Shown here: one piece after another, positions 3,203-50,930 of the stretch
How positions within the stretch are numbered: position 1 is the stretch's first letter
How the letters are laid out: every line of letters starts with the position of its first letter
Source: Escherichia phage inny
Direction: 5' to 3' (one strand)
Sequence record: MN850601.1
DNA: 64,000 nucleotides
Program-made: the position numbers and the translations under genes
The notes under the pieces: generated by a model
What the model was told of the DNA's origin: nothing
Seen by the model: only the letters and a program-made list of their open reading frames with translations
Databases searched by the model: none

Positions 3203-3607
3203 TTATTGTAGCTTAAGTGAACTGCGAAGACGTTCCTCTTGCTGATCACGAATATGTTGTGGAACCTCATGAATTGAATCGTTACCGTGCCTATTCTCCA
3301 CAACTAAAGAAATAACTTGATAACCAAACTCTTCAGCAAGAGTTAAATAAGGTTTAAGTTCTTTTTCTGTAGTAGAGGTATTAGAAACAATAATCTTTTC
3401 AACACCATACTGCATATATTTTTGTACTTTGACACGACACCATTGGTGTGCTTTATGGATATTCTCTTGTTTCCACTCATACACACCATCTTCAGTGTAG
3501 TGGTATTGATCTGCCTCACAAATAGGCCAATGATTTTCAGAGATAATTTCTGCTACTGTAGATTTACCTGCACCTGAAACACCACGTAAAATGATAAGTT
3601 GTTTCAT
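3203..3607 (-). CDS. P-loop kinase (putative polynucleotide 5'-kinase)
   Basis: 134 aa; Walker A GVSGAGKST at N-terminus; stop/start directly adjacent to the ligase-like gene upstream. Confidence 0.55.
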   Translation of the reverse strand: MKQLIILRGVSGAGKSTVAEIISENHWPICEADQYHYTEDGVYEWKQENIHKAHQWCRVKVQKYMQYGVEKIIVSNTSTTEKELKPYLTLAEEFGYQVISLVVENRHGNDSIHEVPQHIRDQQEERLRSSLKLQ

Positions 3608-4540
3608 TTAGCCTCCAAAGAAGTTTTCTATTTCTTTACGTCGCTCTTGTGGATCGAGAGCAGCCCATTGAGCCTTCGTAAATTTATTTCGAAGCCATTC
3701 TAGCAAAGTATAATATTCTTCGTCAACAATTTGTTTAGCATTGTTTGGGTTGTCCCAAATCATATCCCACTTCTTATTGCCACCACGCATAAGGAATTTC
3801 TTAGCAAGATAGTATGGTGACTTAATCTTTAAGAGTAAGTTAAACGGATAGTTTGTTTCACGAACAACAAAGCCTTCGTGTCTACAATGTTTAGACATTT
3901 CAACAACATCTGAAAATTTAATCATTGGATAAACTTCAGGACGTTTAAATTTTGTAATAGATGCAATCCCATCAAGAACACCTTCAGGTAACATGAAACT
4001 TGTCCCATCAAGATTTTGAATTCTTGCTCCAATTAAGTATGCGCCTGGTTCTTCTTCGACAATATGTGGATCAGAAGGATCACAGATTTCAAAAAGGAAA
4101 GTTGCTTTTGCACTTTCTGTCCACTTAATGAAATACTCTATGTCATCACACTCGGAAACAATACGGTTCTTGGCAATAGTTGCAAAGTCTGACTCTAGGC
4201 TCCCTGTTGTTGATACAACAAGTTGCCCTTTGTACACACCTACAGATGCCATAAAACCGTTTACTTTACGGACAGCATCTACAAATTCATCTCCTGGAAG
4301 ATCTGTACCATTCTCAAAACGATTAAAGATTTTAGTAAAAGGCCAAATAACAATATTATCTTCTGAATCAACAACCAACCCACGACAATCTAAAAGTCGT
4401 TTGTCAACGTTCCACAAGTTATCCCAGAATACATTGTTTTTGTATTTAAGTACAGCAAGACCAGCATACTCTCCAGATTTAACTTCTTTTTTATGCACTA
4501 AACCTTTTGCAATCAGGTCATCACAATTGAACTTAGCCAC
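3608..4540 (-). CDS. nucleotidyltransferase, RNA ligase-like
   Basis: 310 aa; candidate motif I lysine in RKVNGFM; flanked by kinase and metallophosphoesterase genes. Confidence 0.5.
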   Translation of the reverse strand: MAKFNCDDLIAKGLVHKKEVKSGEYAGLAVLKYKNNVFWDNLWNVDKRLLDCRGLVVDSEDNIVIWPFTKIFNRFENGTDLPGDEFVDAVRKVNGFMASVGVYKGQLVVSTTGSLESDFATIAKNRIVSECDDIEYFIKWTESAKATFLFEICDPSDPHIVEEEPGAYLIGARIQNLDGTSFMLPEGVLDGIASITKFKRPEVYPMIKFSDVVEMSKHCRHEGFVVRETNYPFNLLLKIKSPYYLAKKFLMRGGNKKWDMIWDNPNNAKQIVDEEYYTLLEWLRNKFTKAQWAALDPQERRKEIENFFGG

Positions 4541-4541
4541 C

Positions 4542-5093
4542 TTAATCTCCTTTGATTATCTTATGATGATCTACAACAATAATATCACGCTTATCCATAA
4601 TAGAGATGATTTCGTCAAAATGTAAGATTTTCCCGTGTGCATCCCAACCAACATCCAACATTTTCCCATACAAATGATCAGGGAATGATCCGTGAGAGTG
4701 TCCGTGTAGCATGATTGATCCATGCCCTTGTTTATTCCAGGCAGCCATAGGGTAATGACTTAAGACGAAGAACAGCTTCTGATATTTCACTTCGTCATAA
4801 TACACAACTTCTCCATACTCTGCAAGCACTTTTCTGTGTTTACTGTAATCATGGTTCCCAACACAGTAAGTAATATCCCCTTGGAGACGGGAAGCAATCT
4901 TACGGGTATCTTCTTCAGTCCCGAAACAGAAGTCCCCAAGATGGTACATCTTTACTCCTGGTGTTGTGGCACATTTATTCCATGCTTCGATCAGTGCTTC
5001 TGTCATATGCTCCATATCTTCCCACGGGCGATATTCAGGAGCAAACTCTCGGATACGTTTGTGCATAAAATGCAAATCACTTGTAATAAACAT
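4542..5093 (-). CDS. calcineurin-like metallophosphoesterase
   Basis: 183 aa; MPP signature motifs in canonical order: SDLHF, LGDF, VGNHD, LHGHSHG. Confidence 0.75.
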   Translation of the reverse strand: MFITSDLHFMHKRIREFAPEYRPWEDMEHMTEALIEAWNKCATTPGVKMYHLGDFCFGTEEDTRKIASRLQGDITYCVGNHDYSKHRKVLAEYGEVVYYDEVKYQKLFFVLSHYPMAAWNKQGHGSIMLHGHSHGSFPDHLYGKMLDVGWDAHGKILHFDEIISIMDKRDIIVVDHHKIIKGD

Positions 5094-5455
5094 TAGTATA
5101 ATCCCTCGCTGAATAGTTCACTGTTGTGACCATTTCTTTCGTAGTTAATTTGTTTGGCGTTATCTGCAATGATATAAGCATCTTTGCGACTCCACCAGTT
5201 ATAATACTGATCAATAAACCCTTGATTATCAGGTAAGCAAAACAGTTTATCAATCAATCCTGCATCTTTTAAAACATTAAGTTGTGCAGATAGTACAGGA
5301 TTTGCATGCCTAACACAAGGAATAATTAACTCTTCGCCATTATTGAGAATATACTTATTCGCAGCGCAGACTATAACACGTTGAGCATAGTGATCCTCAC
5401 CAAGCCAAGTAAGAGGTTGGTAACAAATATCATGTTGATTAGTAGCGCACATCAA
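5093..5455 (-). CDS. hypothetical protein (120 aa)
   Basis: ORF track; start overlaps stop of next gene. Confidence 0.5.
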   Translation of the reverse strand: MMCATNQHDICYQPLTWLGEDHYAQRVIVCAANKYILNNGEELIIPCVRHANPVLSAQLNVLKDAGLIDKLFCLPDNQGFIDQYYNWWSRKDAYIIADNAKQINYERNGHNSELFSEGLY

Positions 5456-5601
5456 TTTTCTCCATACTCTTTTAATCTATCAGCGAAAAAACTGTAATCA
5501 GGAAGTAAAAGATCATTACTCGTATCGCTACAGTTTTCTTCCTCTTTATAGATAAAATGCCCTTCATCCTCTTCTTGCTCTGACCAAACTGAGTAATGCA
5601 T
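5452..5601 (-). CDS. small acidic hypothetical protein (49 aa)
   Basis: unlisted short ORF read by eye; ATG at 5601, stop overlapping the ATG of the 5093..5455 gene (ATGA-type coupling); weak SD. Confidence 0.25.
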   Translation of the reverse strand: MHYSVWSEQEEDEGHFIYKEEENCSDTSNDLLLPDYSFFADRLKEYGEN

Positions 5602-5610
5602 AATACCTAC

Positions 5611-5952
5611 TTAATAGTTAACACGTTTAATTTCAACACCATAGGATGAAATAAAATTTTCCTTAGCTAACATATATTTACCAGCAGCAGAAGGATTTGA
5701 TGTATGAACATAGATAGTTTTAAGAGCATCCCATTCACCAGCGTACAACATACATTCTACATCTAAGAACGCATGATAGCCTTCTTGATCTTCTCCAAGA
5801 TCATTATCGAAGTGTATTTCTGAGATATTATTGAAATTATCTTCATCTGAAACAAAAGATGACCAATCCCCAAAAGATTTTAACCAAATGGCATCCTCAT
5901 AACCATAATCTTTAGGATCTCTTAAATCGTCTAACCAAATAATTTTAGCCAC
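5611..5952 (-). CDS. hypothetical protein
   Basis: ORF track 5611..5985 trimmed to GTG at 5952 preceded by GGAAGGGGG SD and lying 3 nt after the upstream gene stop. Confidence 0.45.
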   Translation of the reverse strand: MAKIIWLDDLRDPKDYGYEDAIWLKSFGDWSSFVSDEDNFNNISEIHFDNDLGEDQEGYHAFLDVECMLYAGEWDALKTIYVHTSNPSAAGKYMLAKENFISSYGVEIKRVNY

Positions 5953-5954
5953 TA

Positions 5955-6146
5955 TCAACCCCCTTCCTGTTTCTCTTCTTTCCAAGTTTTACCTTTATCT
6001 ACCAATTGCTTAGAAACAGCAAATCTTTCTCCATTGACATAAAACAGATAAAGAATAAAGGATTTTCCTATAGTTACAGTATCTACTACTTCTACACGCT
6101 TTACACCTTGCATGTATTTGGCTTTACCTGAATAAATAAGGAACAT
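5955..6146 (-). CDS. hypothetical protein (63 aa)
   Basis: ORF track. Confidence 0.4.
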   Translation of the reverse strand: MFLIYSGKAKYMQGVKRVEVVDTVTIGKSFILYLFYVNGERFAVSKQLVDKGKTWKEEKQEGG

Positions 6147-6424
6147 TATTTATTCCTTTTGTTGTTGATCACATCTAAAGCTGTATAAGGTTTGTTTGTA
6201 CCGCTGTATTCAAGAATAATTGGTGCATGTTCATAGACAAACTCAAAAGTACCATACACAGAATCTGCAACTGAAATAAGCATTTCAGTGCCTTCATCGT
6301 TCTTAATTAATGAAAACCTTGCCCCTGGTTTATTGAGCACTTCATATTTCTTACCTACTGTCAGCAAACCTGAATACCATTCATTTTGCACAACAGACAA
6401 ACACTTCAGATAGGTTTTTCTCAT
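6146..6424 (-). CDS. hypothetical protein (92 aa)
   Basis: ORF track; start overlaps upstream stop. Confidence 0.5.
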   Translation of the reverse strand: MRKTYLKCLSVVQNEWYSGLLTVGKKYEVLNKPGARFSLIKNDEGTEMLISVADSVYGTFEFVYEHAPIILEYSGTNKPYTALDVINNKRNK

Positions 6425-6762
6425 TTCTTTTTGCTCCTTCTTTTAGGCTTCTCGTATAAACCTAACACAGCAGACTCTTTTGCACAGATAGGAACTGACT
6501 TCATTCCTCGTTTTTTGGCTTCTGGTAGATTCAAAACCCACCAGCCAAACCAATACAATTCATCTTCTGTGAAAGGATCTGCCATAGGATCTGCATCACG
6601 TTCTTCAAATTTAGCAAGAGCTTCTTCTATCTTTTCTATTGGAGTATCAAAGACAAAAGCCTCTGTGTCAAATTTTTGTTTCTTAGGAGCGGCCTTTGCC
6701 GCCCCCTCTTTAGATGCGTGCTTTGTTACGGATCGCTTCTTCGGTGTTTTCGCCATCAACAA
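6421..6762 (-). CDS. hypothetical protein with lysine-rich N-terminus (113 aa)
   Basis: ORF track; basic N-terminal tail (KTPKKRSVTKHASKEGAAKAAPKKQK) suggests nucleic-acid binding. Confidence 0.5.
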   Translation of the reverse strand: MLMAKTPKKRSVTKHASKEGAAKAAPKKQKFDTEAFVFDTPIEKIEEALAKFEERDADPMADPFTEDELYWFGWWVLNLPEAKKRGMKSVPICAKESAVLGLYEKPKRRSKKK

Positions 6763-6949
6763 CCTCCATACGGTGTAAGAAATCTTGCTGGAATCGCCAA
6801 TACTGTTGACCAGTCCTTACATCTTCGTAGATCACAACAGGATCAAACACTTTAGATACACCCGCTGGTTTAGGAAAACCAACTACACGATATAAACCAC
6901 CTTTACTAATACAAGAATATGTTACATCAGTTAAAATTTCTTTTTTCAT
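6710..6949 (-). CDS. hypothetical protein (79 aa), start uncertain
   Basis: ORF track; overlaps downstream gene by about 50 nt. Confidence 0.35.
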   Translation of the reverse strand: MKKEILTDVTYSCISKGGLYRVVGFPKPAGVSKVFDPVVIYEDVRTGQQYWRFQQDFLHRMEVVDGENTEEAIRNKARI

Positions 6950-7143
6950 TTTTTAATAAACTCCAAAACAGGTACGTGATCAGCAGTCAAAGTTACACAA
7001 TTGTAACTTACCTTTTCAACTTCAGAGAATGCTTCAACCCAAAGCAAGAAATTCTCTTTAGCTTCTTCATAATTCAATGTTGACTTAACAACATGGAACT
7101 CACCAAGAATTACTCTATAGATTGTTTGCATAGTTTGATTCAT
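6946..7143 (-). CDS. hypothetical protein (65 aa)
   Basis: ORF track. Confidence 0.4.
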   Translation of the reverse strand: MNQTMQTIYRVILGEFHVVKSTLNYEEAKENFLLWVEAFSEVEKVSYNCVTLTADHVPVLEFIKK

Positions 7144-7209
7144 TTATTTTTCCTTTGTTTAAAATGTGTTAAACAATCGCAAATGCTCGTGACGCACTTT
7201 GTGATCCCA

Positions 7210-7578
7210 CTAATTAACGTCAGCACTATGATTGTTGAGAGTATAGGATACTCCATCGCCCAAGTCAACATGAATCTCAACTCCTAACTGTCTTTCTAAT
7301 GGTAAACGTTTTGAGAATTGATAATTACAAAGTTTGCAATCTAAGTCAAGCAACTCATGTTTGCTTAAACCTGGGATGATAACTTTGCTTCCCACTGTCC
7401 ACTCAATACCTTCAAAGTTATCTCTTCTTTTCAAAATGTCAAGTAAGAAGATGATTTGTTGCCATTCCGTAGACAAGTCTTCTTCATAGAACGCAGAACA
7501 AAAAGTTTTATCATCGTAGAAAGCATACATTATGCCTCCATCTACTGTTTCACTTCTAACGTAACGTGTGACCCTCAT
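7210..7578 (-). CDS. hypothetical protein (122 aa), first gene of the minus-strand block
   Basis: ORF track; AGGAGGG SD upstream of ATG at 7578. Confidence 0.5.
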   Translation of the reverse strand: MRVTRYVRSETVDGGIMYAFYDDKTFCSAFYEEDLSTEWQQIIFLLDILKRRDNFEGIEWTVGSKVIIPGLSKHELLDLDCKLCNYQFSKRLPLERQLGVEIHVDLGDGVSYTLNNHSADVN

Positions 7579-7931
7579 TATTCCCTCCTGTATAGCTCTG
7601 TAACGAGCTAATGGCCTTTAAGATATGCAATCACCTTACCTCACAGTAAAACTCGTTACAATCGTTTTTAGGAGGTTTAGGTTGTACTTAAAAATAATCT
7701 AAAAAGGTGTTGACAAACGCAAAAAAGTATGCTACCCTAACCCCCGAAAAACGCCGAGCGCAGCGAGGGGGTGTTATCTAATCTTGTGATACATGATCTA
7801 ACAGACAACTGAGTAGTCTACATATAGCACTATGTTATGTCTATAATACTAACATACATACTCTATACTAACAATAGATTCTTTATTAATTTTATTATTA
7901 ATTAAATAATAAATTAAATAATAAATATCTA

Positions 7932-7960
7932 TTGACTTTAGATCTATCTGTATGTAGAGT
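7932..7960 (+). promoter_or_regulatory. sigma70-like promoter TTGACT-N17-TGn-TAGAGT
   Basis: -35 at 7932..7937, TG at 7953..7954, -10 at 7955..7960; 40 nt upstream of the prs-like gene. Confidence 0.55.
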
Positions 7961-7999
7961 AGAGAACATAAAGTCCTAACTCAACTAAGGAGATAAACA

Positions 8000-8893
8000 A
8001 TGAAAGTTAGTATTCTACATGGTGTTGACTGTTATGTTACTGATGTAGACGTTAAAGTCTTTACATTCTCTGGTGGAGAACAACATGTTCAACTAGACAC
8101 GAATCTATCAGGTTTCAATCATGCTACAGACAGAATCTTACTCTCTTTAGAAGTAAGATCTGCTAAAGACTTGATGACTTTGGTTATGACTAAGAATGCA
8201 TTGGACAATATGCTATATCATAAACCATATTGTGTTGATTTACTCATGTTGTATGTGCCGTATGCACGACAAGACAGAGTGTGTGAGCCTGGGGAAGCAT
8301 TCGGAGTTAAAGCCTTTGCTTCTATAATTAATTCATTAAATTTCTCACGTGTTATCGTTGCTGATCCACATAGTGATGTTACTCCGGCAGTGTTTGACAG
8401 ACTCTGTGTAATACCTCAAGAAGAGATTGCTTACGAAACTTTAAAGTGGAAGTTACGTATGGAGAATTTTGCTCTTGTTAGTCCTGATGGTGGTGCTCTT
8501 AAGAAAATATTTAAATTATCTAAGAAAATGTCTTTAGATGTGTTCTGTGCAGAGAAGGTTAGAGATACTGCAACAGGTGCTATTGTTCGTACAGACATTT
8601 CTGTACAGGATTTCAATAAGCGTAACCTGATGATCGTAGATGATATCTGTGACGGCGGTAGAACTTTTATTGAATTGGCTAAAGTGCTACGTGCTCGTAA
8701 CGCAGGTAAGATTGAGTTATATGTTACACACGGTATCTTTTCTAAAGGTCTTAAAGAGTTAAGTGAGCACTTTGACTGCATTCATTCTCTTAATGTGTGG
8801 GAAGATAACATCCAAGAAGATTCCGGTGTTCTTGTTAAGAATCAGTCAGATTTGCAACAACAAATTGTATCTCCATACGTGTGGAATTTTTAA
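8000..8893 (+). CDS. prs: ribose-phosphate pyrophosphokinase family protein (Prs-like; possibly an ADP-ribose pyrophosphokinase)
   Basis: 297 aa; Prs hallmark YVPYARQDR and PRPP-binding loop NLMIVDDICDGGRTF; AAGGAG SD. Confidence 0.85.
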   Translation: MKVSILHGVDCYVTDVDVKVFTFSGGEQHVQLDTNLSGFNHATDRILLSLEVRSAKDLMTLVMTKNALDNMLYHKPYCVDLLMLYVPYARQDRVCEPGEAFGVKAFASIINSLNFSRVIVADPHSDVTPAVFDRLCVIPQEEIAYETLKWKLRMENFALVSPDGGALKKIFKLSKKMSLDVFCAEKVRDTATGAIVRTDISVQDFNKRNLMIVDDICDGGRTFIELAKVLRARNAGKIELYVTHGIFSKGLKELSEHFDCIHSLNVWEDNIQEDSGVLVKNQSDLQQQIVSPYVWNF

Positions 8894-37259: not shown

Positions 37260-39335
37260 ATGAAACAGGCTATTTTTACTGTAACTCGAAATACGAGAGT
37301 AAATGCCAGTTCATTCAGCTATAAGACCGTCGATGGAACGGCGGTCGCTGGTAGAGATTATGTAGCTAAACAGGGAACAGTAACGTTCCCTTCTGATGCA
37401 GATTCTGTTACTGTAGTAGTTGATGTATATGAACGTCCGGCAAACTCTTTAGATCTTTATTTTACTCTTGAGATTACTAGCATAAGTCAAAATAACATGA
37501 TGATCAATGAAGAAATTCGTTGTGTTATTACGACTAATCAATCGAATACAACCCCGCTAACTTGGCCTGTTGTGAAGTCTAGAATGTTTGATCCTAAGTT
37601 TTGGACAATAGATTCTCAAGCAACAGAGAGTTGTTCTATTATCTCTAATGGTGATTCTTTCACAGCAAGAATGGTTAATAGGACAGTGGCTGGTCTTGCT
37701 GGGATTATTTGGTCAACTTACGATAAATATGATCACAAAGGATTAGGCTACCAAGAACATTCTGACTTAAGTAAAGAGAAACTTTGGTTTAAAATGGAAC
37801 TTAGTCAAGGTGTTCCTGGATTAAAAGAAGAAAAATTATTGCCATCCTTAACAGTGACACTGAAGGATGAAACAGTTCATTATGTATCTCTAAACTTTTA
37901 TGCAGAAGAAGTTTCAGAGGACGGTAAAACAGCAATAATCAAATTAGATTTCTCAAATTTAAAATCTGGGCCAGAAAATGATATTGTTGTTGACACTACA
38001 CAGATAGATAACATGTTCTTCTCCTTGATTTCCGCAAGGTATCAAGAAATTGAAGATGTTATACCAGTAGACAATATAGATCTTTCCTTTAAGTTTACCA
38101 TACTAGAGCCTGATACTGGTTACAGTATGATGAATATGGGTAATTTAAATGTTCCGGCGCACACCATAAGAATGTGTACATCTTATGATGATATGTATAA
38201 CCTAACCCCAGAGCGAGTTATTTCTAACACCTATAGATTAGGTTATAGAGATATGATTAACCATTATAATGGTATGTCACACTATTATCAATTTAGTTGG
38301 GATGCTGGATCTAATAAATGGGCTTTGAACAGAACAGAATATTTAAACCCAGCAACAGAAGCCTGGTTTGATAATTTCCACGCTAATGCAAAAGCTATGG
38401 GCTACACAGTAATGAACTCCTTAAGTTTTGAAATTATGAGTACAGTGTGTCCTGTAGAATGGGTACAACATACTTGGAATGATGATCTGGCTGCTACAGG
38501 TTATGAGCCACCAAGTTATGTTTTATCTCCTTCAATTGATGAAGGGATGAATTATTTACAAGGTGTAATAAATAAGATAGCTTCTATATCCGCTGCTAAT
38601 GATCTTCCGGTTATTATTCAGGTTGGTGAACCGTGGTGGTGGTATAACACAGCTACCAATCTACCGTGTATTTATGATTATGCAACCAAAGTTGCATTTA
38701 ATAATGAAACTGGGTTATATGCACAAGATGTTGGTACAGTTAAGAATTATAAAACTGGTACACCATATGATGAATATTATGCATTCCTATCTAAAACATT
38801 AGGACTGCGTGTTGCTAAATTTGCAACAGATACTAAATTAGCCTATCCTGGAGCTAAAGTTACATTATTACCATTTGTGCCATCCATTTTAGGTAATGGT
38901 ATGATGGAGTTTGTTAACTTCCCTAAAGATTATTATATCCCAGAAAACTTTGACTTTTATTGTTCAGAATGTTATGACTGGTTGTTGGAAGGTCAGATGG
39001 AAAGATCTTTCGACGCTATTAAAATACCTAATGAGCAACTAGGTTTTAGTTATGATAAGATACATTATCTTGCAGGGTTTGTTCCAGATGCAACTCTAGC
39101 ACCATTATATGGCTTTGATCCTGAATCAGACTACAGAACATATTTGTGGAAAATGATTATAGGTAATATCGTATTGAACGACCAGAAGTTTGTTGGTTTG
39201 TATCAATACATATGGGCTTATCCACAAATTATGGCAGATTCATTAACTGTTCTTAATTCAAAATCCCAAGTTTTTTATATGGGTAACGTACCTCTGAATG
39301 TCTTTTTACAAGATACAGTATATGTTTCTTCTTAA
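37260..39335 (+). CDS. tail/baseplate structural protein (691 aa)
   Basis: ORF track. Confidence 0.5.
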   Translation: MKQAIFTVTRNTRVNASSFSYKTVDGTAVAGRDYVAKQGTVTFPSDADSVTVVVDVYERPANSLDLYFTLEITSISQNNMMINEEIRCVITTNQSNTTPLTWPVVKSRMFDPKFWTIDSQATESCSIISNGDSFTARMVNRTVAGLAGIIWSTYDKYDHKGLGYQEHSDLSKEKLWFKMELSQGVPGLKEEKLLPSLTVTLKDETVHYVSLNFYAEEVSEDGKTAIIKLDFSNLKSGPENDIVVDTTQIDNMFFSLISARYQEIEDVIPVDNIDLSFKFTILEPDTGYSMMNMGNLNVPAHTIRMCTSYDDMYNLTPERVISNTYRLGYRDMINHYNGMSHYYQFSWDAGSNKWALNRTEYLNPATEAWFDNFHANAKAMGYTVMNSLSFEIMSTVCPVEWVQHTWNDDLAATGYEPPSYVLSPSIDEGMNYLQGVINKIASISAANDLPVIIQVGEPWWWYNTATNLPCIYDYATKVAFNNETGLYAQDVGTVKNYKTGTPYDEYYAFLSKTLGLRVAKFATDTKLAYPGAKVTLLPFVPSILGNGMMEFVNFPKDYYIPENFDFYCSECYDWLLEGQMERSFDAIKIPNEQLGFSYDKIHYLAGFVPDATLAPLYGFDPESDYRTYLWKMIIGNIVLNDQKFVGLYQYIWAYPQIMADSLTVLNSKSQVFYMGNVPLNVFLQDTVYVSS

Positions 39336-43278: not shown

Positions 43279-43620
43279 ATGGAGCTAACAGAAGTATGGG
43301 ATATCGCTAAAGAGGCGATTATCCCTCTTATTGGCGTAATCTGGGTGGTCTTCAAACAGAAGATAGATGATATGGCAAGTGATTTGGATAAAATGGAAGA
43401 CAAATACCGCGAACTAGAAAAGAAGTTGGTGTTTGTTGAATCCACTTATGCTACCAAAGCAGAACTTGCTCAAATGCTTAACCAGATCAACTCTACATTA
43501 ATGGCAAATAATACTGCCTTAGAACAGAAGATTGAAAAAATAATGGATTTAAAAAATGCTCCTGTTCAATTAATGCTAGAGGAGATTACAAAGCGCACAC
43601 AAAGTAAGGACAAAAATTAA
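43279..43620 (+). CDS. hypothetical coiled-coil protein (113 aa)
   Basis: ORF track. Confidence 0.4.
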   Translation: MELTEVWDIAKEAIIPLIGVIWVVFKQKIDDMASDLDKMEDKYRELEKKLVFVESTYATKAELAQMLNQINSTLMANNTALEQKIEKIMDLKNAPVQLMLEEITKRTQSKDKN

Positions 43621-46034
43621 TGGCGAATTTTCCAACATATCCTGCTACGACACTAGAACAAGGTGTTGATCTGGTTATATTCTCGTCTAACCAGATGCAT
43701 GATGTTATTAATGGGGATGCTACAGCAACTGTAGAAACCGAAACAGGTTTAATACCTACACTGCGTAAAGCACTTGTTGATAACTTCTTCTTTAAGAGTC
43801 CTGTTGCTTGGTCAGCAGGATCAACTGAAACTGTATTTAACCAGTTACGTTATTTTGAAAACGGTATCTTGAGTGGGTACTATTATGCCCCATCTGCCAC
43901 TACTGCGAACCCTGTACCTATGCAGGGCACACCTGTAGGGGACAGTAACTGGACTCTGTACGCTCTTAAAACTGAACAGTTAGCTTCAGATGTGTATCCT
44001 TGGTATTTTAAAGGTGCTACAGGATATGAAACAGAAATCAGTCCTCCTTATATCTTTGATAATGCTATTGTCACCATTAACGGTGTAATTCAGATTCAAG
44101 GTGAAGCATTTACTATCAAAGATAGTAAAATTATTCTGGCAGAACCATTAGGTTTAGATCCGTCTACTGGTCTACCTAACAAATTGTTTGCTTTTATTGG
44201 TAAAACAACAGCCTCTACTTCTTACGTAGAGAAAAACCTTTTGTCATCTACCACTGGTGCAGCAATGGTTGGTCTTCCATCTGGAGGCAACCTGTTACAA
44301 GCTCAATACTTTGTAACGCCTGAGCAGTTTGGTGCAATTGGTGATGGAGTTACCGATGATACTCAAGCAATTTTAAAAACTATTACTTTCGCTAACACGA
44401 ATAACATTCAAGTACGTGCAGATAAGAATTATAGATTCACAAGCTCAATTGCTATGTCTGGTATTCGTTGGTATGGTGGTACATTCACTGGTAACGGTGG
44501 AACAATGATTTCTACTGTGTCCTGTTGGATGGAAAACGTTCGCTTTGAAAAATGTTATGTTAAGATGTTAGGTGGTGATTGCCGATTCTATCGTAATATC
44601 TTCTCCAACGCAACATCTACAGCAGCATTCTTAATGCAAGCAATGACAAGTGAAGGTACGTTGGACTTCAGTTACAACGAAATGTATGGTTGTAAATATG
44701 CGATCCTGCAACAAGGTACTGGAGAAGTAATGACCTACGGGCGTTACTCTAACAACTATATTCACGATATTAAAGGTGATGCTATTGAACTTAACGTAGT
44801 TCAAAAACACTACACTGAAGGTTTGATTATCGAGAATAACCACATTGCTAACGTAGATGCTTCTGGACAAGGGGCAAACTGGGGTATTGGTATTGGTGTA
44901 GCAGGTAGTGGCCCATATGGTGTTGATGTTCCTGATTCACAATATGTACGTAACTTCAGTATCGTTGGGAATAGGGTTTACAATTGCCGTCAATGTTTAC
45001 ACGTTGAAATGGGTAAAAACTTCACAATACGTGATAATGAAGTTTATCCTAACACAGCAGTTTCAACAGGTACAGGTTTAACTACTTGTGGTGTTGCATT
45101 ATACGGATGCCAAGATTTTGAAGTTGATGGTTTAACTGGTTATCTGCTTAATGATCCGTCTGTTTCAACACGCATGGTCTTTATTGATTGGGGTGTTAAC
45201 AGTGGAAGATATGCGGGGCCACCAATTAACTTTACAATTAAGAATTTGGATATTCCAGAATCCTCAATTGAGATTGCAACCTCTGGATCAGATGCTTGGG
45301 AAAACTCTACAATTGTTAGTAATATCAATTGTAATGTTTTTAAATGGCGTGGGCTACCATCTAGCTCTACTTTTAATAATATTCGTTGCCGTAGTATTGA
45401 CTTTATTGGTCAACACGGAAGCGGAGAAGGAAGTGGTGGCGGTTTCTATACTCGCAGCCAATTCACGTATATGAAGTGGGTAGGATGTACAGCACTTAGC
45501 GGAGATGAAACAACAGTTTCTTTTGCTAAAATCTACACTGATCGTTGCGATCAGGTTGGAAATAACTTTGGTGTTCCAACTGCTGTTGATGGTACAGGTC
45601 ATCGTGGGCCAGTTTTAACTACTATTTCTGAACAATATTTTACAGCTTATGATGAATTCCCAGGTGGGCGTGAATTCCCTACTGGAACAGTTATTCATTG
45701 TGCAAGCGGTAAAAAACATGTTGTTACAGTAGGTGGTGCTTTCTTTAGTGCCAACGAGAAAATAAAAGCAACTGTTACAGGTCAAACCTATCTACAGTCT
45801 AATGCTTTAAACTGGGCTAGTAATGGCTACGCTAAAGCAGCAGGTACTAAAATTGTTATTCCAGGTGCAGGTGCAAATGGCGGCGATCTTGTGACAACTA
45901 TAGCACGTGCTACATACGTGACAAATAGTTTGTACACAATAGATATTGCAGATCCAATTGTAACACCTACAGCAGAGAATACACAAATTAAAGCTCTGAA
46001 TCCTGTTACTTTTGTTACTGTCAACAATGCTTAA
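43620..46034 (+). CDS. tailspike-like protein with parallel beta-helix (pectate-lyase-fold) repeats
   Basis: 804 aa; repeated N/G/I-rich beta-helix rungs (IIENNHIANVDASGQG, FSIVGNRVYNCRQCLHVEMGKNFTIRDNEVYPN); followed by terminator. Confidence 0.55.
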   Translation: MANFPTYPATTLEQGVDLVIFSSNQMHDVINGDATATVETETGLIPTLRKALVDNFFFKSPVAWSAGSTETVFNQLRYFENGILSGYYYAPSATTANPVPMQGTPVGDSNWTLYALKTEQLASDVYPWYFKGATGYETEISPPYIFDNAIVTINGVIQIQGEAFTIKDSKIILAEPLGLDPSTGLPNKLFAFIGKTTASTSYVEKNLLSSTTGAAMVGLPSGGNLLQAQYFVTPEQFGAIGDGVTDDTQAILKTITFANTNNIQVRADKNYRFTSSIAMSGIRWYGGTFTGNGGTMISTVSCWMENVRFEKCYVKMLGGDCRFYRNIFSNATSTAAFLMQAMTSEGTLDFSYNEMYGCKYAILQQGTGEVMTYGRYSNNYIHDIKGDAIELNVVQKHYTEGLIIENNHIANVDASGQGANWGIGIGVAGSGPYGVDVPDSQYVRNFSIVGNRVYNCRQCLHVEMGKNFTIRDNEVYPNTAVSTGTGLTTCGVALYGCQDFEVDGLTGYLLNDPSVSTRMVFIDWGVNSGRYAGPPINFTIKNLDIPESSIEIATSGSDAWENSTIVSNINCNVFKWRGLPSSSTFNNIRCRSIDFIGQHGSGEGSGGGFYTRSQFTYMKWVGCTALSGDETTVSFAKIYTDRCDQVGNNFGVPTAVDGTGHRGPVLTTISEQYFTAYDEFPGGREFPTGTVIHCASGKKHVVTVGGAFFSANEKIKATVTGQTYLQSNALNWASNGYAKAAGTKIVIPGAGANGGDLVTTIARATYVTNSLYTIDIADPIVTPTAENTQIKALNPVTFVTVNNA

Positions 46035-46075: not shown

Positions 46076-48037
46076 GTGATTTTAACACGTCCAAATAGTG
46101 CCATTGCAGACATGGTAGAGTCTCGCTATAGAAAGCGTAGAAGTTTTGCAAGTGGTTTTACCTTAAGAGATGCTCGTGAAGCATTGCTCTTTGAAACTGA
46201 CGGTAACTACTATCAGTGGAAAGGTTCTCTACCTAAAGTTGTACCTGCTAACTCTACTCCTACATCTACTGGAGGGATTTCAGATACAGCTTGGAAAAAT
46301 GTGGGTAATGCAGATGACATTGCTCAAATAGAATCAGAATTAGATGCTATTGAAGCTGAAATTGAAGATCTTAGAGAATCCATTCCAGAAGCTGGTAAAT
46401 CAGCTTACCAGATTGCCGTAGACAATGGTTTCCAAGGTACTGAGACAGACTGGTTGGCTTCTTTAAAAGGTGATCCAGGTGCTCCATTAAAGCTGCTAGG
46501 GACGCTATCTAATACCAACCAATTACCTACAACTGGAAACAATGCAGGAGATGCATGGATTGTAGGCGAGAATATGTATGCTTGGGATGGTACTGCTTGG
46601 AGAAAAGTAAACTCACAGGGGCCAGAAGGTAAATCAGCTTATCAAGTTTGGCTTGCAGCAGGAAACCAAGGTACAGAACTAGATTATCTTGCTTCAATTA
46701 AAGGTGATAAAGGGGAGCCTGGCCCAGAGGGGCCACAAGGTGTGCCAGGTAACAATGCTAATGGTTTTGATTACCAAGGTGCAGCTAATTCCGTTTCAGA
46801 TCTTCCTTCTGCATCTCCTGGAAACACATCTCAAGCATGGAGTATTGGTACATATCTATACGTGTCAAACGGTGTAGAATGGATCAATATGGGTGCTATA
46901 GTGGGGCCAAAAGGAGATAAAGGCGACAAAGGAGATAAGGGTAACACTGGTGATTCAGCTTATCAAGTCTGGTTAAATGCTGGTAACGTTGGTACTATTG
47001 ACGAATATATTGCCTCTCTGAAAGGAGAAAAAGGTGATAAGGGAGACAAGGGTGATCAAGGTGAGCAGGGTATACAAGGCTTGACGGGGCCAACTGGTGC
47101 AGGGTTGACCATTATTGATATTCTGACTGACACTTCTGAACTACCAGGAACTGGAGAAGATGGTGATGGTTATCTGATCAATAATGAACTTTGGGTTTGG
47201 TTGCAAGGAGCCACACAGTGGACAAATGTTGGTCGTTTAGCTGGTACTCCAATCACTGCAAAAGGACACGTTGCATCTGCAAGTGCACTTCCTCCTACAT
47301 CCAATTACGGTGATGCTTATCTGACGGAAGATACAGGTCATCTTTACATTTACACCTATGATGAACAAACTCAAACTGCTGAATATGTAGATATGGGTAG
47401 TTTGAAAGGTGATAAGGGTGAGAAAGGTGACGCTGGTACTAACGGTACGGATGGCGCAACTTGGATTGTTAAAACAACAGATCCAATCTCTAGGGATGGT
47501 AAACAAGGGGATTATGCCTTTAATATCTCCACTGGCGAGGTGTTCTTAAAAACATCTGCAACTGTCTGGACTTCTCAAGGTACACTACCTAGCATCACAG
47601 ATGCACCTAGTGACGGTAAAATCTATGCTCGTAAAGATGGAGCATGGGAAGAACTCACTAGTTCTGTAGATGGTCAAGATATAGTTCCAACAAAAGTAAC
47701 AACTAATTTTATAGAGGTTACAGCATACACCAACAACTCTGTTACAGGGGACTGGACACCTCCAGGAACACATAACATGAATGTGTTGAATCTTACTGGT
47801 AACTCTACTATAAAAGCATGGCCTGGTGTCGAAGATAGCACAAAACCTAAACCATTCTCTGCAATAGTTTATCTTATCCAAGATGCCACTGGGGGTCGTA
47901 CTGTTACTTTAGACCCATCTTACAAAGTAATTGGTTCTAGTGATATTAATACAGATCCTAACGGAGTAACAATACTACAACTAACATATTGTGGTGTTGG
48001 TGATTACGTGGATGCTATTGTTGCTAAACGCACATAA
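46076..48037 (+). CDS. tail fibre protein with collagen-like Gly-X-Y tracts
   Basis: 653 aa; GTG start behind AAGGAG; tracts GPKGDKGDKGDKGNTGD and KGEKGDKGDKGDQGEQGIQGLTGPTG; internal repeats SAYQ(I/V)..(N/D)..G(T/N)...(Y/W)LAS(L/I)KG. Confidence 0.6.
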   Translation: MILTRPNSAIADMVESRYRKRRSFASGFTLRDAREALLFETDGNYYQWKGSLPKVVPANSTPTSTGGISDTAWKNVGNADDIAQIESELDAIEAEIEDLRESIPEAGKSAYQIAVDNGFQGTETDWLASLKGDPGAPLKLLGTLSNTNQLPTTGNNAGDAWIVGENMYAWDGTAWRKVNSQGPEGKSAYQVWLAAGNQGTELDYLASIKGDKGEPGPEGPQGVPGNNANGFDYQGAANSVSDLPSASPGNTSQAWSIGTYLYVSNGVEWINMGAIVGPKGDKGDKGDKGNTGDSAYQVWLNAGNVGTIDEYIASLKGEKGDKGDKGDQGEQGIQGLTGPTGAGLTIIDILTDTSELPGTGEDGDGYLINNELWVWLQGATQWTNVGRLAGTPITAKGHVASASALPPTSNYGDAYLTEDTGHLYIYTYDEQTQTAEYVDMGSLKGDKGEKGDAGTNGTDGATWIVKTTDPISRDGKQGDYAFNISTGEVFLKTSATVWTSQGTLPSITDAPSDGKIYARKDGAWEELTSSVDGQDIVPTKVTTNFIEVTAYTNNSVTGDWTPPGTHNMNVLNLTGNSTIKAWPGVEDSTKPKPFSAIVYLIQDATGGRTVTLDPSYKVIGSSDINTDPNGVTILQLTYCGVGDYVDAIVAKRT

Positions 48038-48040
48038 TCA

Positions 48041-48066
48041 AAGCCCCTTCGGGGGCTTATTGTTTA
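48041..48066 (+). terminator. intrinsic terminator (AGCCCC-TTCG-GGGGCT + T-run)
   Basis: hairpin is the exact reverse complement of the one at 403..420. Confidence 0.65.
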
Positions 48067-48076
48067 AGGAGATTAA

Positions 48077-50896
48077 ATGTATCCTATTCCTTTATTTATG
48101 TCAACAACATCAGCTTCAGTAGTAACAGCTACATCTATAACTACTTCCTCTATTGGTATTGCAATAGTTGGTGGTAAAAAACAACTGACATACACAGTTA
48201 CACCGGAAGATGGTGCATTATTTGATATAGCTTTTTCATCTTCAGATAATACCAAAATGGTTATAGATAATAGTGGTATGATGGAGTTTGTTGCCGAAGG
48301 TGGTTTTGATGCAATAATGACAGCTAAAAATAATTTAGGTGCTGTCTTAACTGATCAATCTGGTGGTTATGCTTCAGAATTAAGTGTGTACACTGAAAGT
48401 CTATCGGCTATGGATGTAGGCACTACTCAACAGTTGGTTGCTACAATCAGTCCAGAAGGTGCTAAAGACCTTCCAGATATGGTAATTACATACACCACAA
48501 CAGATCCAGAAGTAGCTACTGTAAGCCCTACAGGGTTAATAACTGCTCTTAAAGATGGCGGTTGCCGTATAGGTTGTACTGCAACGTATCAAGGAACAGT
48601 TGTGGCCTCTGATAGTTCTTATTTAGGTGTTAATGCTATTCCTGTTATTTCTAATGTAACAGCCGTGGCAAACAGCTATGGAGACGTTCGTGTTGCTTGG
48701 GATGTAACTGATCCTCTAGATGGTGATACTTATACTGTAGAAGTATTAGATTTAAGTAATAATAGTGTTCAGTGGACTACAACAACCACGAATACTCATG
48801 CTTACTTTGATATCTCTGACTCTATTCCTCTTTATGGGTTTGCTCCAACATACCTTAAAATTAGCGTTAAGAGCACCAAAGCAGCAGCCGTTATCTTTAA
48901 TAACTCAATAGCTACAGATGATTCGTTCATTAAAGAAGTTATTGTCTTTGCTGGACAAGATAACGTAAATGCACACTTTACAGAACTATCTGGTGCAAAT
49001 AAAGCAGCAATGGGTAGCACAACAGCCCGTAATGCATATGCTACGCAACGTGGTTTAGCAAATGCTGAAGTTCTTCCGTTAAATACAGCTTCTGGATCAT
49101 CAGCAGCAGATAAATATGCTGACGATAAAGCTGGAACAGGTACACCAGATAACTACTGGTATGATCTGGATAACACAGCAGATGGGCCATGCTTAACTAA
49201 CTTTATCACTAAAGTCACACCTTATGCAAGTAAGGTTAAAGCAATTATTTGGGGACAAGGTGAAAATGATGCTGTATCAGCATCTTCGACTGTTGCAGGT
49301 AGGTACAGTAACACTACACGTTACCATGATGCTACGATAGCTATCTTTGATAAGATGCGTACAATAGTTCCTGCTTCTCAAGCAAAAATTGTTTGGCAGA
49401 TCCTAGGACGTTCTTATTTATATGGTGTAGAAGTTAATGGTGTGGATTGGCAGAAGTACAGAAATGTACAAAGAACCATCTCTACAGCACGTGATGATGT
49501 TATCATTGGTTCTTGGGTAGATGGTGCTGAACGTTACAGTGGTTATGTTTATGAAGAAGGTATTGATGGTCGTATCCATTATATTTCTTCTGTATACCAA
49601 ACAGCAGCTACAAAACTTGCTAAATCAGCAGCAGACGGTACAGACTTAACATCAACGTCACCTGTTTGGGTTGATATGGCTGTTCCAACTGGAGCAACAG
49701 CTACTTCCCAACCTAATCAAGATACAATTTTAGCATGGGATGCTCAAGGCTATAGTAAACACTACTTCCGTAATATTAACGTCTTAACCGCATCTGTATT
49801 AACTGAACAAACGCTTAATACGAACAGTTATACGTTTACCTATGCAGATCAAGTAGAACAATATGGTTTTGCAGCAGGAACTACTATATTTGATGTTGCA
49901 TATTATGACGAAGCAAATGATGTGTTATCTCCTTTAGTACGTTTTAATGTTAACGTTACAGCAGGAACCGTAGAAGATAAACCTGTCGTGATGGACTATG
50001 ATTTGACGCAAGAAACTCTTCCATCAGATGTTAAGGTTAATGGTGGGAACTCTTTTGCTCGTGCTTCTGGAGATATACTTGTAGCCACTAACACCTTGGT
50101 TGCTCCGTTGGAGTATGTTGGTAATACCCCTGTAGGTAGACGTGTAACAGCTAACACAGCTTCACAAATTTTTGTCAACAACGCCTTAACAAGTGCAAGC
50201 CCGTGGGTAAAGACCAACTTAACTGTTGCAGCTTCATCTGATAAATCTCCGGCTGGAACTACTGCCAATGTATTCAAATTAACTCCGACTACAACCTCTG
50301 GTAGTCATATCTTAACTGCAACATATACTAACGCGTACAACATATCTGCCGGACGTAACTGGTCTGCCTCTGTTTTCTTGAAAGCAAACGGGATTACTAA
50401 GGCCAAACTAAGATTAAAAGCAGGAACTGAAGTTAATGAGGGTACTTTTGATTTAGCAGCAGGTACATTCACAGGAAGTGAAGCTAATATTATATCTATG
50501 GGCAACGGTTGGTATCGTGCTATTCTGCATAAAACAGGGATAGCCAAACAGTCCTTCATAAGTTTTGAAATAATTGCCTTGGATGCAACTGGTGCGGAGA
50601 TTTTCGCTGGAGATGGTACTAGTAACCTTGCAGTTTGGTTGCCACAGCTTGAAGGTGCTTCTACAGGAGAAACATCAAAAGCTGGATCGCCTTATGTCTG
50701 CACATATCCTGGAAATTTAGGAGGAGTATCCTTCACTATACCAAGGAACGGACATACTGGTGTGGATGTTTACTATTCCAACGGAGACGTTGTTCGTGAC
50801 GTATTCTCTGGTACGGCATCTACTTGGACAATAAACTACTCCAGTTTGTACGATTGGGGATCAGTCTTTATTACAGGTTTGAAATATTACGACTAA
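48077..50896 (+). CDS. tail fibre/receptor-binding protein with sialate-O-acetylesterase-like (SASA) domain
   Basis: 939 aa; AAGGAG SD; Thr/Ser-rich Ig-like N-terminal repeats; esterase-type motifs VFAGQDNVNAHF and IIWGQGENDA. Confidence 0.5.
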   Translation: MYPIPLFMSTTSASVVTATSITTSSIGIAIVGGKKQLTYTVTPEDGALFDIAFSSSDNTKMVIDNSGMMEFVAEGGFDAIMTAKNNLGAVLTDQSGGYASELSVYTESLSAMDVGTTQQLVATISPEGAKDLPDMVITYTTTDPEVATVSPTGLITALKDGGCRIGCTATYQGTVVASDSSYLGVNAIPVISNVTAVANSYGDVRVAWDVTDPLDGDTYTVEVLDLSNNSVQWTTTTTNTHAYFDISDSIPLYGFAPTYLKISVKSTKAAAVIFNNSIATDDSFIKEVIVFAGQDNVNAHFTELSGANKAAMGSTTARNAYATQRGLANAEVLPLNTASGSSAADKYADDKAGTGTPDNYWYDLDNTADGPCLTNFITKVTPYASKVKAIIWGQGENDAVSASSTVAGRYSNTTRYHDATIAIFDKMRTIVPASQAKIVWQILGRSYLYGVEVNGVDWQKYRNVQRTISTARDDVIIGSWVDGAERYSGYVYEEGIDGRIHYISSVYQTAATKLAKSAADGTDLTSTSPVWVDMAVPTGATATSQPNQDTILAWDAQGYSKHYFRNINVLTASVLTEQTLNTNSYTFTYADQVEQYGFAAGTTIFDVAYYDEANDVLSPLVRFNVNVTAGTVEDKPVVMDYDLTQETLPSDVKVNGGNSFARASGDILVATNTLVAPLEYVGNTPVGRRVTANTASQIFVNNALTSASPWVKTNLTVAASSDKSPAGTTANVFKLTPTTTSGSHILTATYTNAYNISAGRNWSASVFLKANGITKAKLRLKAGTEVNEGTFDLAAGTFTGSEANIISMGNGWYRAILHKTGIAKQSFISFEIIALDATGAEIFAGDGTSNLAVWLPQLEGASTGETSKAGSPYVCTYPGNLGGVSFTIPRNGHTGVDVYYSNGDVVRDVFSGTASTWTINYSSLYDWGSVFITGLKYYD

Positions 50897-50898
50897 TA

Positions 50899-50930
50899 AA
50901 AAAGGAGCCATTAGGCTCCTTTTCTTTTAT
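50899..50930. terminator. bidirectional terminator (AGGAGCC-ATTA-GGCTCCT flanked by A-run and T-run)
   Basis: sits between convergent plus-strand fibre gene and minus-strand genes. Confidence 0.7.

Follow-up and report, generated by a model that had tools for sequence, protein, structure and literature searches.

Proteins of the SASA/DUF303 family share the sequence blocks GQSNM, xGG(S/T)xx, xQGExD and D-x-(L/I)-H, with the Ser of block I as the nucleophile (residues 29-33 of 2APJ and 9-13 of 1ZMB; PMC10792757). In CE6 and CE20 enzymes, the Gln of block I takes part in forming the oxyanion hole (PMC12313940). Esterase-type domains on phage adsorption proteins are already well known, and three reports, going by their titles, measured esterase activity for tailspikes of the SGNH type (PMC8594841, PMC9569702, PMC11654681). 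For another phage protein, N4 gp65, receptor binding is a known function, whereas the papers on N4 surveyed give its SGNH domain no esterase role. Here we consider a gene for a protein of 939 amino acids (aa) in a DNA stretch of 64,000 nucleotides (nt) from Escherichia phage inny (MN850601.1), hereafter the window. A first-pass annotation had presented the product as a tail fiber with a SASA-like esterase domain and had suggested a receptor-modifying activity, such as deacetylation of O-antigen or capsule, rather than simple binding. The useful correction offered here is that the esterase label, judged from the residues present, probably overstates the activity. We favor, with moderate confidence, the reading that the protein is a modular accessory adsorption protein whose SASA-derived domain no longer hydrolyzes esters through a Ser-His pair. 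The domain would probably be retained as a glycan-binding, lectin-like or at least structured module, and an exchangeable distal domain would add strain-specific contacts.

The resemblance on which the annotation had been built, between the motifs FAGQDNVNAHF (residues 291-301) and IIWGQGENDA (390-399) and the SASA blocks, reflects homology and not chance. The SASA/DUF303 profile search proposed as its check succeeded at the level of the family and fell short for the single protein. With a gathering score of 24.8 bits, Pfam SASA (PF03629) matched the full protein partially at 15.1 bits (E=0.017) and the domain alone, again partially, at 16.8 bits (E=0.0053), but 21 of 27 aligned relatives matched it individually, the best with E=2e-13. 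Word-indexed protein searches with the domain alone or with the family alignment returned almost no matches and an exhaustive HMMER search was needed, which yielded 80 cluster representatives for residues 278-538; a search for related loci with the single protein gave only two, both nearly identical. In the family consensus the blocks follow the order GQSN..H, W.QGE.D and (D..)IHY. Among structures of SASA/DUF303 proteins, the family profile matched 2apj (E=5e-7) and 1zmb (E=5e-5), and hhalign against the Pfam-SASA "acetyl xylan esterase" P0083 gave a probability of 98.2% and E=3.8e-14 over 201 columns. Residues 270-543 were modeled by AlphaFold2 (AF2) with a predicted local distance difference test score (pLDDT) of 94.1 and a predicted template modeling score (pTM) of 0.91. 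The alpha/beta/alpha fold of SGNH hydrolases was recovered for residues 283-535, and the top Foldseek match was N4 gp65 (E about 1e-11, query TM-score TMq 0.75). Since profile, hhalign, AF2, Foldseek and the Pfam matches of the relatives agree, the protein does possess a central SGNH-fold domain of the SASA type (about residues 283-535), and its gene lies at the end of the tail-fiber/tailspike cluster of a phi92-like myovirus.

The affiliation with N4 gp65 extends to the sequence level. The family profile matched gp65 (9lc0) in two stretches with E=3.7e-63, and in tblastn the window domain matched N4 with E=4e-4 and 29% identity, and gp65-like proteins of Achromobacter, Delftia and Pseudomonas with E=1e-5 to 1e-8. 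Besides similarity in sequence and structure, the 939-aa protein shares with gp65-like proteins the succession of an SGNH domain and a homologous beta-sandwich (residues 541-626 in the AF2 model) within a multi-domain tail protein.

In likening GQDN to GQSN, the first-pass annotation had matched the right block and overlooked that Asp295 occupies the position of the catalytic Ser. In all alignments made, Asp295 lines up with the catalytic Ser, Gly498 with the triad Asp and His501 with the His. Asp295 pairs with Ser31 of 2apj (GQS31NM) and the corresponding Ser of 1zmb in HMMER alignments, and with the Ser of GQSNM in P0083 according to hhalign; in the AF2 model residue 295 sits where strand 1 passes into helix 1, which is the usual place of the nucleophile. 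Its codon, GAT, is two substitutions away from any Ser codon, and GQDN occurs in each of the 14 cluster members whose sequence extends over the motif. The Gln of block I and the Gly of block II are present as Gln294 and Gly340, and Asn296, Gln394-Gly-Glu-Asn-Asp398 and His501 are likewise retained; the Ser nucleophile is missing from block I (GQ-D295-NV). Because Asp295 stands for the nucleophile Ser and Gly498 for the triad Asp, a loss of acetyl-ester hydrolysis by the Ser-His(-Asp) route is likely.

Among the copies traced, the Asp variant is confined to a single clade of the family. In an alignment of 112 domain copies, 75 have Ser in the nucleophile column and five non-redundant ones have Asp; the remaining copies have A, L, Q, V, H, M, G, E or T. 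One Asp copy is that of the window protein and three belong to the Avunavirus sequences P0004, Av-05 and 19-1-2; the fifth was not traced to a sequence. In a neighbor-joining tree, Justusliebigvirus and Avunavirus form one clade, sister to sequences with S, A and S in this column. Further changes accumulated on the Avunavirus branch (Gln294 to Gly, Gly340 to Ile and Gln394 to Leu), and phage 19-1-2 additionally carries Gln in place of His501. This erosion has the appearance expected of a retired active site, in which catalysis would have been given up. Losses are also associated with protein size: Ser and/or His are missing from 13 of 34 copies in proteins longer than 900 aa versus 2 of 20 in proteins of up to 500 aa, and the small free-standing SASA-type proteins have uniformly intact active sites. 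Copy 2 of N4 gp65 has no GQSN, and Tyr replaces its His. The pattern points to many independent active-site losses in large multi-domain proteins. The family would then represent a repeated retirement of an esterase active site in phage tail proteins, and recommends caution with automated "depolymerase/esterase" annotation of receptor-binding proteins. As to the proposed receptor-modifying activity, a SASA-type domain in the tail cluster stands, whereas Asp295, Gly498 and the erosion in Avunavirus speak against the activity itself.

The SGNH domain is nevertheless not decaying but under purifying selection. No other part of the protein is as well conserved across the more than 50 genomes, and the ratios of non-synonymous to synonymous substitution rates (dN/dS) are 0.04-0.09. 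Compared with phage ECGD1 the domain has 99.2% aa identity, 15 of the differences being synonymous and 2 non-synonymous (dN/dS about 0.04), and compared with EmilieFrey dN/dS is about 0.085. The C-terminal module (residues 639-939), by contrast, is swapped between phages in the manner of an exchangeable cassette. It shares 63% identity with the 942-aa EmilieFrey type (dS about 1.5) and is absent from 628-aa forms such as ECGD1, arall and the phi92 type, which possess the SGNH domain, while Phapecoctavirus homologs lack the SGNH domain and have Big_2 joined straight to the C-terminal module.

According to the favored reading, enzymes of the sialate/xylan O-acetylesterase type gave rise to the SGNH domain, which is the same module as in N4 gp65. 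With Ser-dependent hydrolysis lost, the former substrate groove would bind a conserved host surface glycan, possibly the NGR glycan needed by N4 and the phi92-like phages, and selection would have retained it as a non-hydrolytic module. The swappable C-terminal domain would supply strain-specific binding, and the protein would be located on the virion, in the receptor-binding apparatus. There are precedents for both aspects of this proposal: the SGNH-like OSK domain (GDDFM) is a non-enzyme (PMC10792757), and in a CE2 esterase the catalytic cleft doubles as a carbohydrate-binding site, as stated in the titles of 2w9x and 2wao. Several observations weigh against it. In the genus, all active-site blocks are intact apart from Ser295/Asp498, which is more conservation than a retired site strictly needs, and the dN/dS values rest on few substitutions. 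Loss of the triad Asp is not disabling by itself, the Asp being dispensable in NanS and SIAE, which act as dyads (PMC10792757; PMC12313940), and Ser-bearing relatives such as P0008 likewise have Gly in this column. The presence of Asp295 in two genera at 47% identity could mean that the Asp has a role of its own. As proof of a functional Asp we judged this retention weak, since chance retention is not unlikely at that identity.

The first alternative, in line with the first-pass annotation and with the GenBank name "tail carbohydrate esterase", is an active receptor-modifying carbohydrate esterase; by a non-canonical mechanism Asp295, as the nucleophile or as a general base activating water, would work with His501. 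We regard it as unlikely. The intact blocks II and III, the His and the very strong conservation of the domain agree with it, and relatives of the SASA/CE20 type accept unusual acid arrangements, including dyads and water-mediated triads (PMC12313940; PMC10792757). SGNH esterase tailspikes are furthermore an established phage strategy (G7C gp63.1 is cited in PMC8594841), tail proteins of Possum and Vi06 are among the fold neighbors, and O-acetyltransferase homologs in the nfr cluster of Achromobacter suggest that NGR-like glycans may be acetylated in some hosts. Yet the SGNH, CE6 and CE20 enzymes treated in PMC10792757 and PMC12313940 have Ser nucleophiles only, and the sole Ser-to-Asp example there is OSK. 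The Pfam SASA score lies under the threshold, and the Avunavirus sister clade, with the same Asp, has lost oxyanion residues and in one member the His. A more specific version is in our estimation improbable: within an otherwise intact SASA active site, Asp295 and His501 would together catalyze a reaction by a chemistry for which the SGNH fold offers no described example, and the domain would modify NGR or another surface glycan and help phi92-like phages past the O-antigen.

Rather unlikely, too, is that the SGNH domain is an inert spacer in a beads-on-a-string appendage, or that the whole gene is dispensable and being lost, receptor contact being made by the C-terminal module or by other fibers. 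This explanation draws on broken copies and on the Phapecoctavirus homologs that do without the domain. The ortholog of phi92 (NC_023693; locus L009, 5911-7573) has suffered a 218-nt deletion (gene nt 591-808) that removes beta-sandwich A, and a second frame change near residue 335. The product is annotated as gp152 and gp153 ("no RBS identified; weak prodigal statistics"), and phi92 is nonetheless viable with a broad host range. A cryo-electron microscopy study of phi92 omits the protein from its fiber candidates (PMC13450770). A literature search on gp152/gp153 retrieved nothing relevant, the original phi92 paper (Schwarzer et al. 2012) being outside that search. In the ALITA record (locus L001, 9001-11820) a frame disruption in the C-terminal module splits the ortholog into "tail carbohydrate esterase" and "tail protein"; read in frame, the module has one in-frame stop and its identity falls to 33%. 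The type phage phi92 may truly have lost the intact gene, or its disruption may be an artifact; for phi92 and ALITA alike, laboratory passage or sequencing may account for the breaks. Against an inert domain stands its conservation in more than 50 genomes, and the 628-aa forms retain the SGNH domain and drop the C-terminal module, the opposite of what is expected if only the C-terminus mattered. Lastly, that the SASA resemblance is a chance one and the domain has an unrelated fold, for example that of the CE4/PgaB-type deacetylase predicted by BASEL for a tail fiber of these phages, is hardly credible: the sub-threshold Pfam score and the mention of a "poly-GlcNAc deacetylase" fiber in BASEL might favor it, and the profile, Pfam family, hhalign and structure matches refute it.

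The fiber in question is encoded elsewhere in the window. The open reading frame (ORF) at 37260-39335 (+), of 691 aa, contains Calx-beta, Pfam NCTSP_N (8e-21) and TIM-barrel_NCTSP (1e-81) domains and is the "glycan deacetylase" or NGR-targeting fiber of BASEL and Sellner et al. that N4, Vequintavirinae and phi92-like phages have in common. These NCTSP_N and TIM-barrel domains rule out the 939-aa gene as the "glycan deacetylase lateral tail fiber shared with N4 gp64" of BASEL. In N4 (locus L011; gp65 at 3220-7368, gp64 at 7401-8654) the NCTSP TIM-barrel profile is split: residues 374-416 of gp65 correspond to positions 4-46 and residues 109-407 of gp64 to positions 60-347, with the SASA-like array in between. 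We also observed that SGNH copy 1 of gp65 (residues 431-602; GESQ, QGDQD) is without its C-terminal third and that residues 15-78 of gp64 match that block V third ("IGQIHF", E=0.007). The gp65/gp64 heterodimer may reconstitute the split domains, possibly including a Ser-His pair. The two partners of the N4 sheath/receptor-binding assembly, gp65 and gp64, thus each have a counterpart in the myovirus, encoded by a gene of its own. N4, Vequintavirinae and phi92-like phages all need wecB/nfrB, i.e. the NGR glycan (PMC8669472; PMC11990801). Given the gene pair and this receptor context, a glycan target shared with N4 is plausible for the 939-aa protein. A gp65-like sheath role, on the other hand, is unlikely because the phage has a contractile tail.

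The 939-aa protein (Table 1) is a string of Ig-like or beta-sandwich domains with the SGNH domain and a distal beta domain, like N4 gp65, and "fiber" is only a putative label. The PHROG family phrog_215, "structural protein with Ig domain", matches residues 10-206. The full-length AF2 model is confident only for residues 190-630 (beta-sandwich 190-277, SGNH 287-533 and second beta-sandwich 541-626), so that the folds of the Big_2 and C-terminal regions rest on sequence matches; the Big_2 region was modeled as all-beta with low pLDDT. A phmmer alignment of residues 191-640 spans the SGNH and downstream domains in phiAxp-2 and Axy12, in both of which the downstream domain is repeated. The C-terminal module matched the RcGTA head-spike fiber (6tb9, E=4e-14; NCBIfam NF048003, E=1.2e-18) and, in PDB 9occ_C (E=1.4e-19), gp17, the distal tail protein of Shigella phage Sf11. 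The C-terminal appendage of gp17, to which the module is homologous, was left unmodeled and was assigned no function (PMC12724387). Pfam, PHROG and NCBIfam revealed no virion-anchor or trimerization domain (coiled coil, beta-helix or intramolecular chaperone) in the 939-aa protein, which is weak evidence, whereas the adjoining genes carry Tail_spike_N, collagen repeats and a pectate-lyase-like spike.

Table 1 Positions of the 939-aa gene, its flanking signals, protein domains and active-site blocks in the window
Feature	Position	Strand	Remarks
Coding sequence, 939 aa, ATG to TAA	48077..50896	+	Identical to QHR69792.1, "hypothetical protein inny_122", Escherichia phage inny
Ribosome-binding site AAGGAG	48066..48071	+	Ends 5 nt 5' of ATG
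Terminator-like hairpin AAGCCCCTTCGGGGGCTT	48041..48058	+	3' of the preceding tail-fiber gene
Strong terminator-like hairpin	50900..50923	+	10-bp stem then T-run, immediately 3' of the stop codon
N-terminal module, residues 1-189, two Big_2 (bacterial Ig-like) domains	48077..48643	+	Pfam Big_2 E=1.6e-13, 2 stretches
Beta-sandwich domain A, residues 190-279	48644..48913	+	Full-length AF2, pLDDT 75-93, strands only; lost by deletion from the phi92 reference
SASA-type SGNH-fold domain, residues 283-535	48923..49681	+	
Block I GQDNV, residues 293-297	48953..48967	+	Asp295 (GAT, 48959-48961) in the catalytic-Ser column
Block II SGSSAA, residues 339-344	49091..49108	+	Gly340 retained
Block III GQGEND, residues 393-398	49253..49270	+	Matches the SASA canon (xQGExD) throughout
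Block V DGRIH, residues 497-501	49565..49579	+	His501 retained; DxxH Asp column = Gly498; Asp497 offset by one residue
Beta-sandwich domain B, residues 538-628	49688..49960	+	Co-inherited with the SGNH domain in N4 gp65-like proteins, repeated there
Exchangeable distal C-terminal module, residues 639-939	49991..50893	+	Homologous to the Sf11 gp17 C-terminal appendage and the RcGTA head-spike fiber

The gene is the last one of a rightward tail/receptor-binding operon, on which leftward replication genes converge. Upstream lie an ortholog of the colanic-acid-degrading tailspike gp150 of phi92 (43620-46034, +; phrog_6117, 5e-270) and a 653-aa fiber orthologous to phi92 gp151 (46076-48037, +), which combines a Tail_spike_N anchor with collagen-like GxY repeats and a fibritin-C-like stretch. 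The 939-aa gene has a terminator-like hairpin on either side, both on the coding strand, and its presence and architecture vary among relatives, so that it resembles a self-contained cassette closing the tail operon. The DNA of the window is 97-99% identical to that of Justusliebigvirus phages such as ALITA, Paula, alia and PaulScherrer (phi92-like myoviruses, Stephanstirmvirinae). In public records the orthologs are named hypothetical protein, tail protein, lateral tail fiber protein, "non-contractile tail sheath" or "tail carbohydrate esterase", the last in two GenBank records (ALITA and KMB37). A 98% identical ortholog is also found in MG065656.1 ("Campylobacter phage C3") and MG065689.1 ("A110a"), records of 146,366 bp with C. 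jejuni as host that resemble Justusliebigvirus coliphage genomes, and there are matches in one Serratia and one Acinetobacter phage record. The host labels of these Campylobacter, Serratia and Acinetobacter phage records could be wrong or reflect contamination.

Phages of the phi92 type, whose adsorption apparatus comprises multiple fibers, have some of the broadest host ranges of coliphages and are considered for therapy. Our result argues against taking the gene at face value as a deacetylase and links it to the receptor-binding module family of N4 gp65. Compared with the "putative acetylxylan esterase-like" SASA/DUF303 family (PF03629; At4g34215 2APJ, 1ZMB, Escherichia coli NanS 3PT5 and SIAE), the phage protein has Asp for the catalytic Ser and Gly for the Asp of DxxH. 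These enzymes are free or periplasmic, whereas the phage domain is embedded in a 939-aa tail protein and shares 14-17% identity with them. The protein would not pass for a SASA enzyme in the functional sense, failing at the nucleophile and at the Pfam threshold; it does belong to the SASA-derived structural superfamily and to the gp65-type tail modules. The SGNH esterase tailspikes or fibers that remove acetyl groups from O-antigen or capsule (G7C gp63.1, Pectobacterium phage Possum, the Vi-phage tail proteins and Moo19/B2), whose mechanism is the one envisaged by the first-pass annotation, likewise bear an SGNH domain on an adsorption protein and are structural neighbors in BFVD. They belong, however, to GDSL-type or other SGNH subfamilies, keep the Ser and are trimeric, whereas the domain described here is of the SASA type without the Ser, and no trimerization module was detected. 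Two further likenesses, neither to a close relative, are functional analogies only: Oskar OSK (GDDFM) binds RNA and has lost most blocks, whereas the phage domain keeps blocks II and III and the His, and the CE2 enzymes with a carbohydrate-binding cleft keep their Ser. The nearest described counterpart is N4 gp65 (9LC0, 9YF4, 9YF5), a non-contractile tail sheath and receptor-binding protein that contains the same SGNH module twice, although the direct identity is only 23-29%. It comes from a podovirus, where it forms a sheath heterodimer with gp64 round the tail tube, whereas the phage described here is a contractile-tailed myovirus. N4 gp65 also bears an N-terminal NCTSP_N domain and part of the TIM barrel, both of which lie in the window in the separate gene at 37260-39335.

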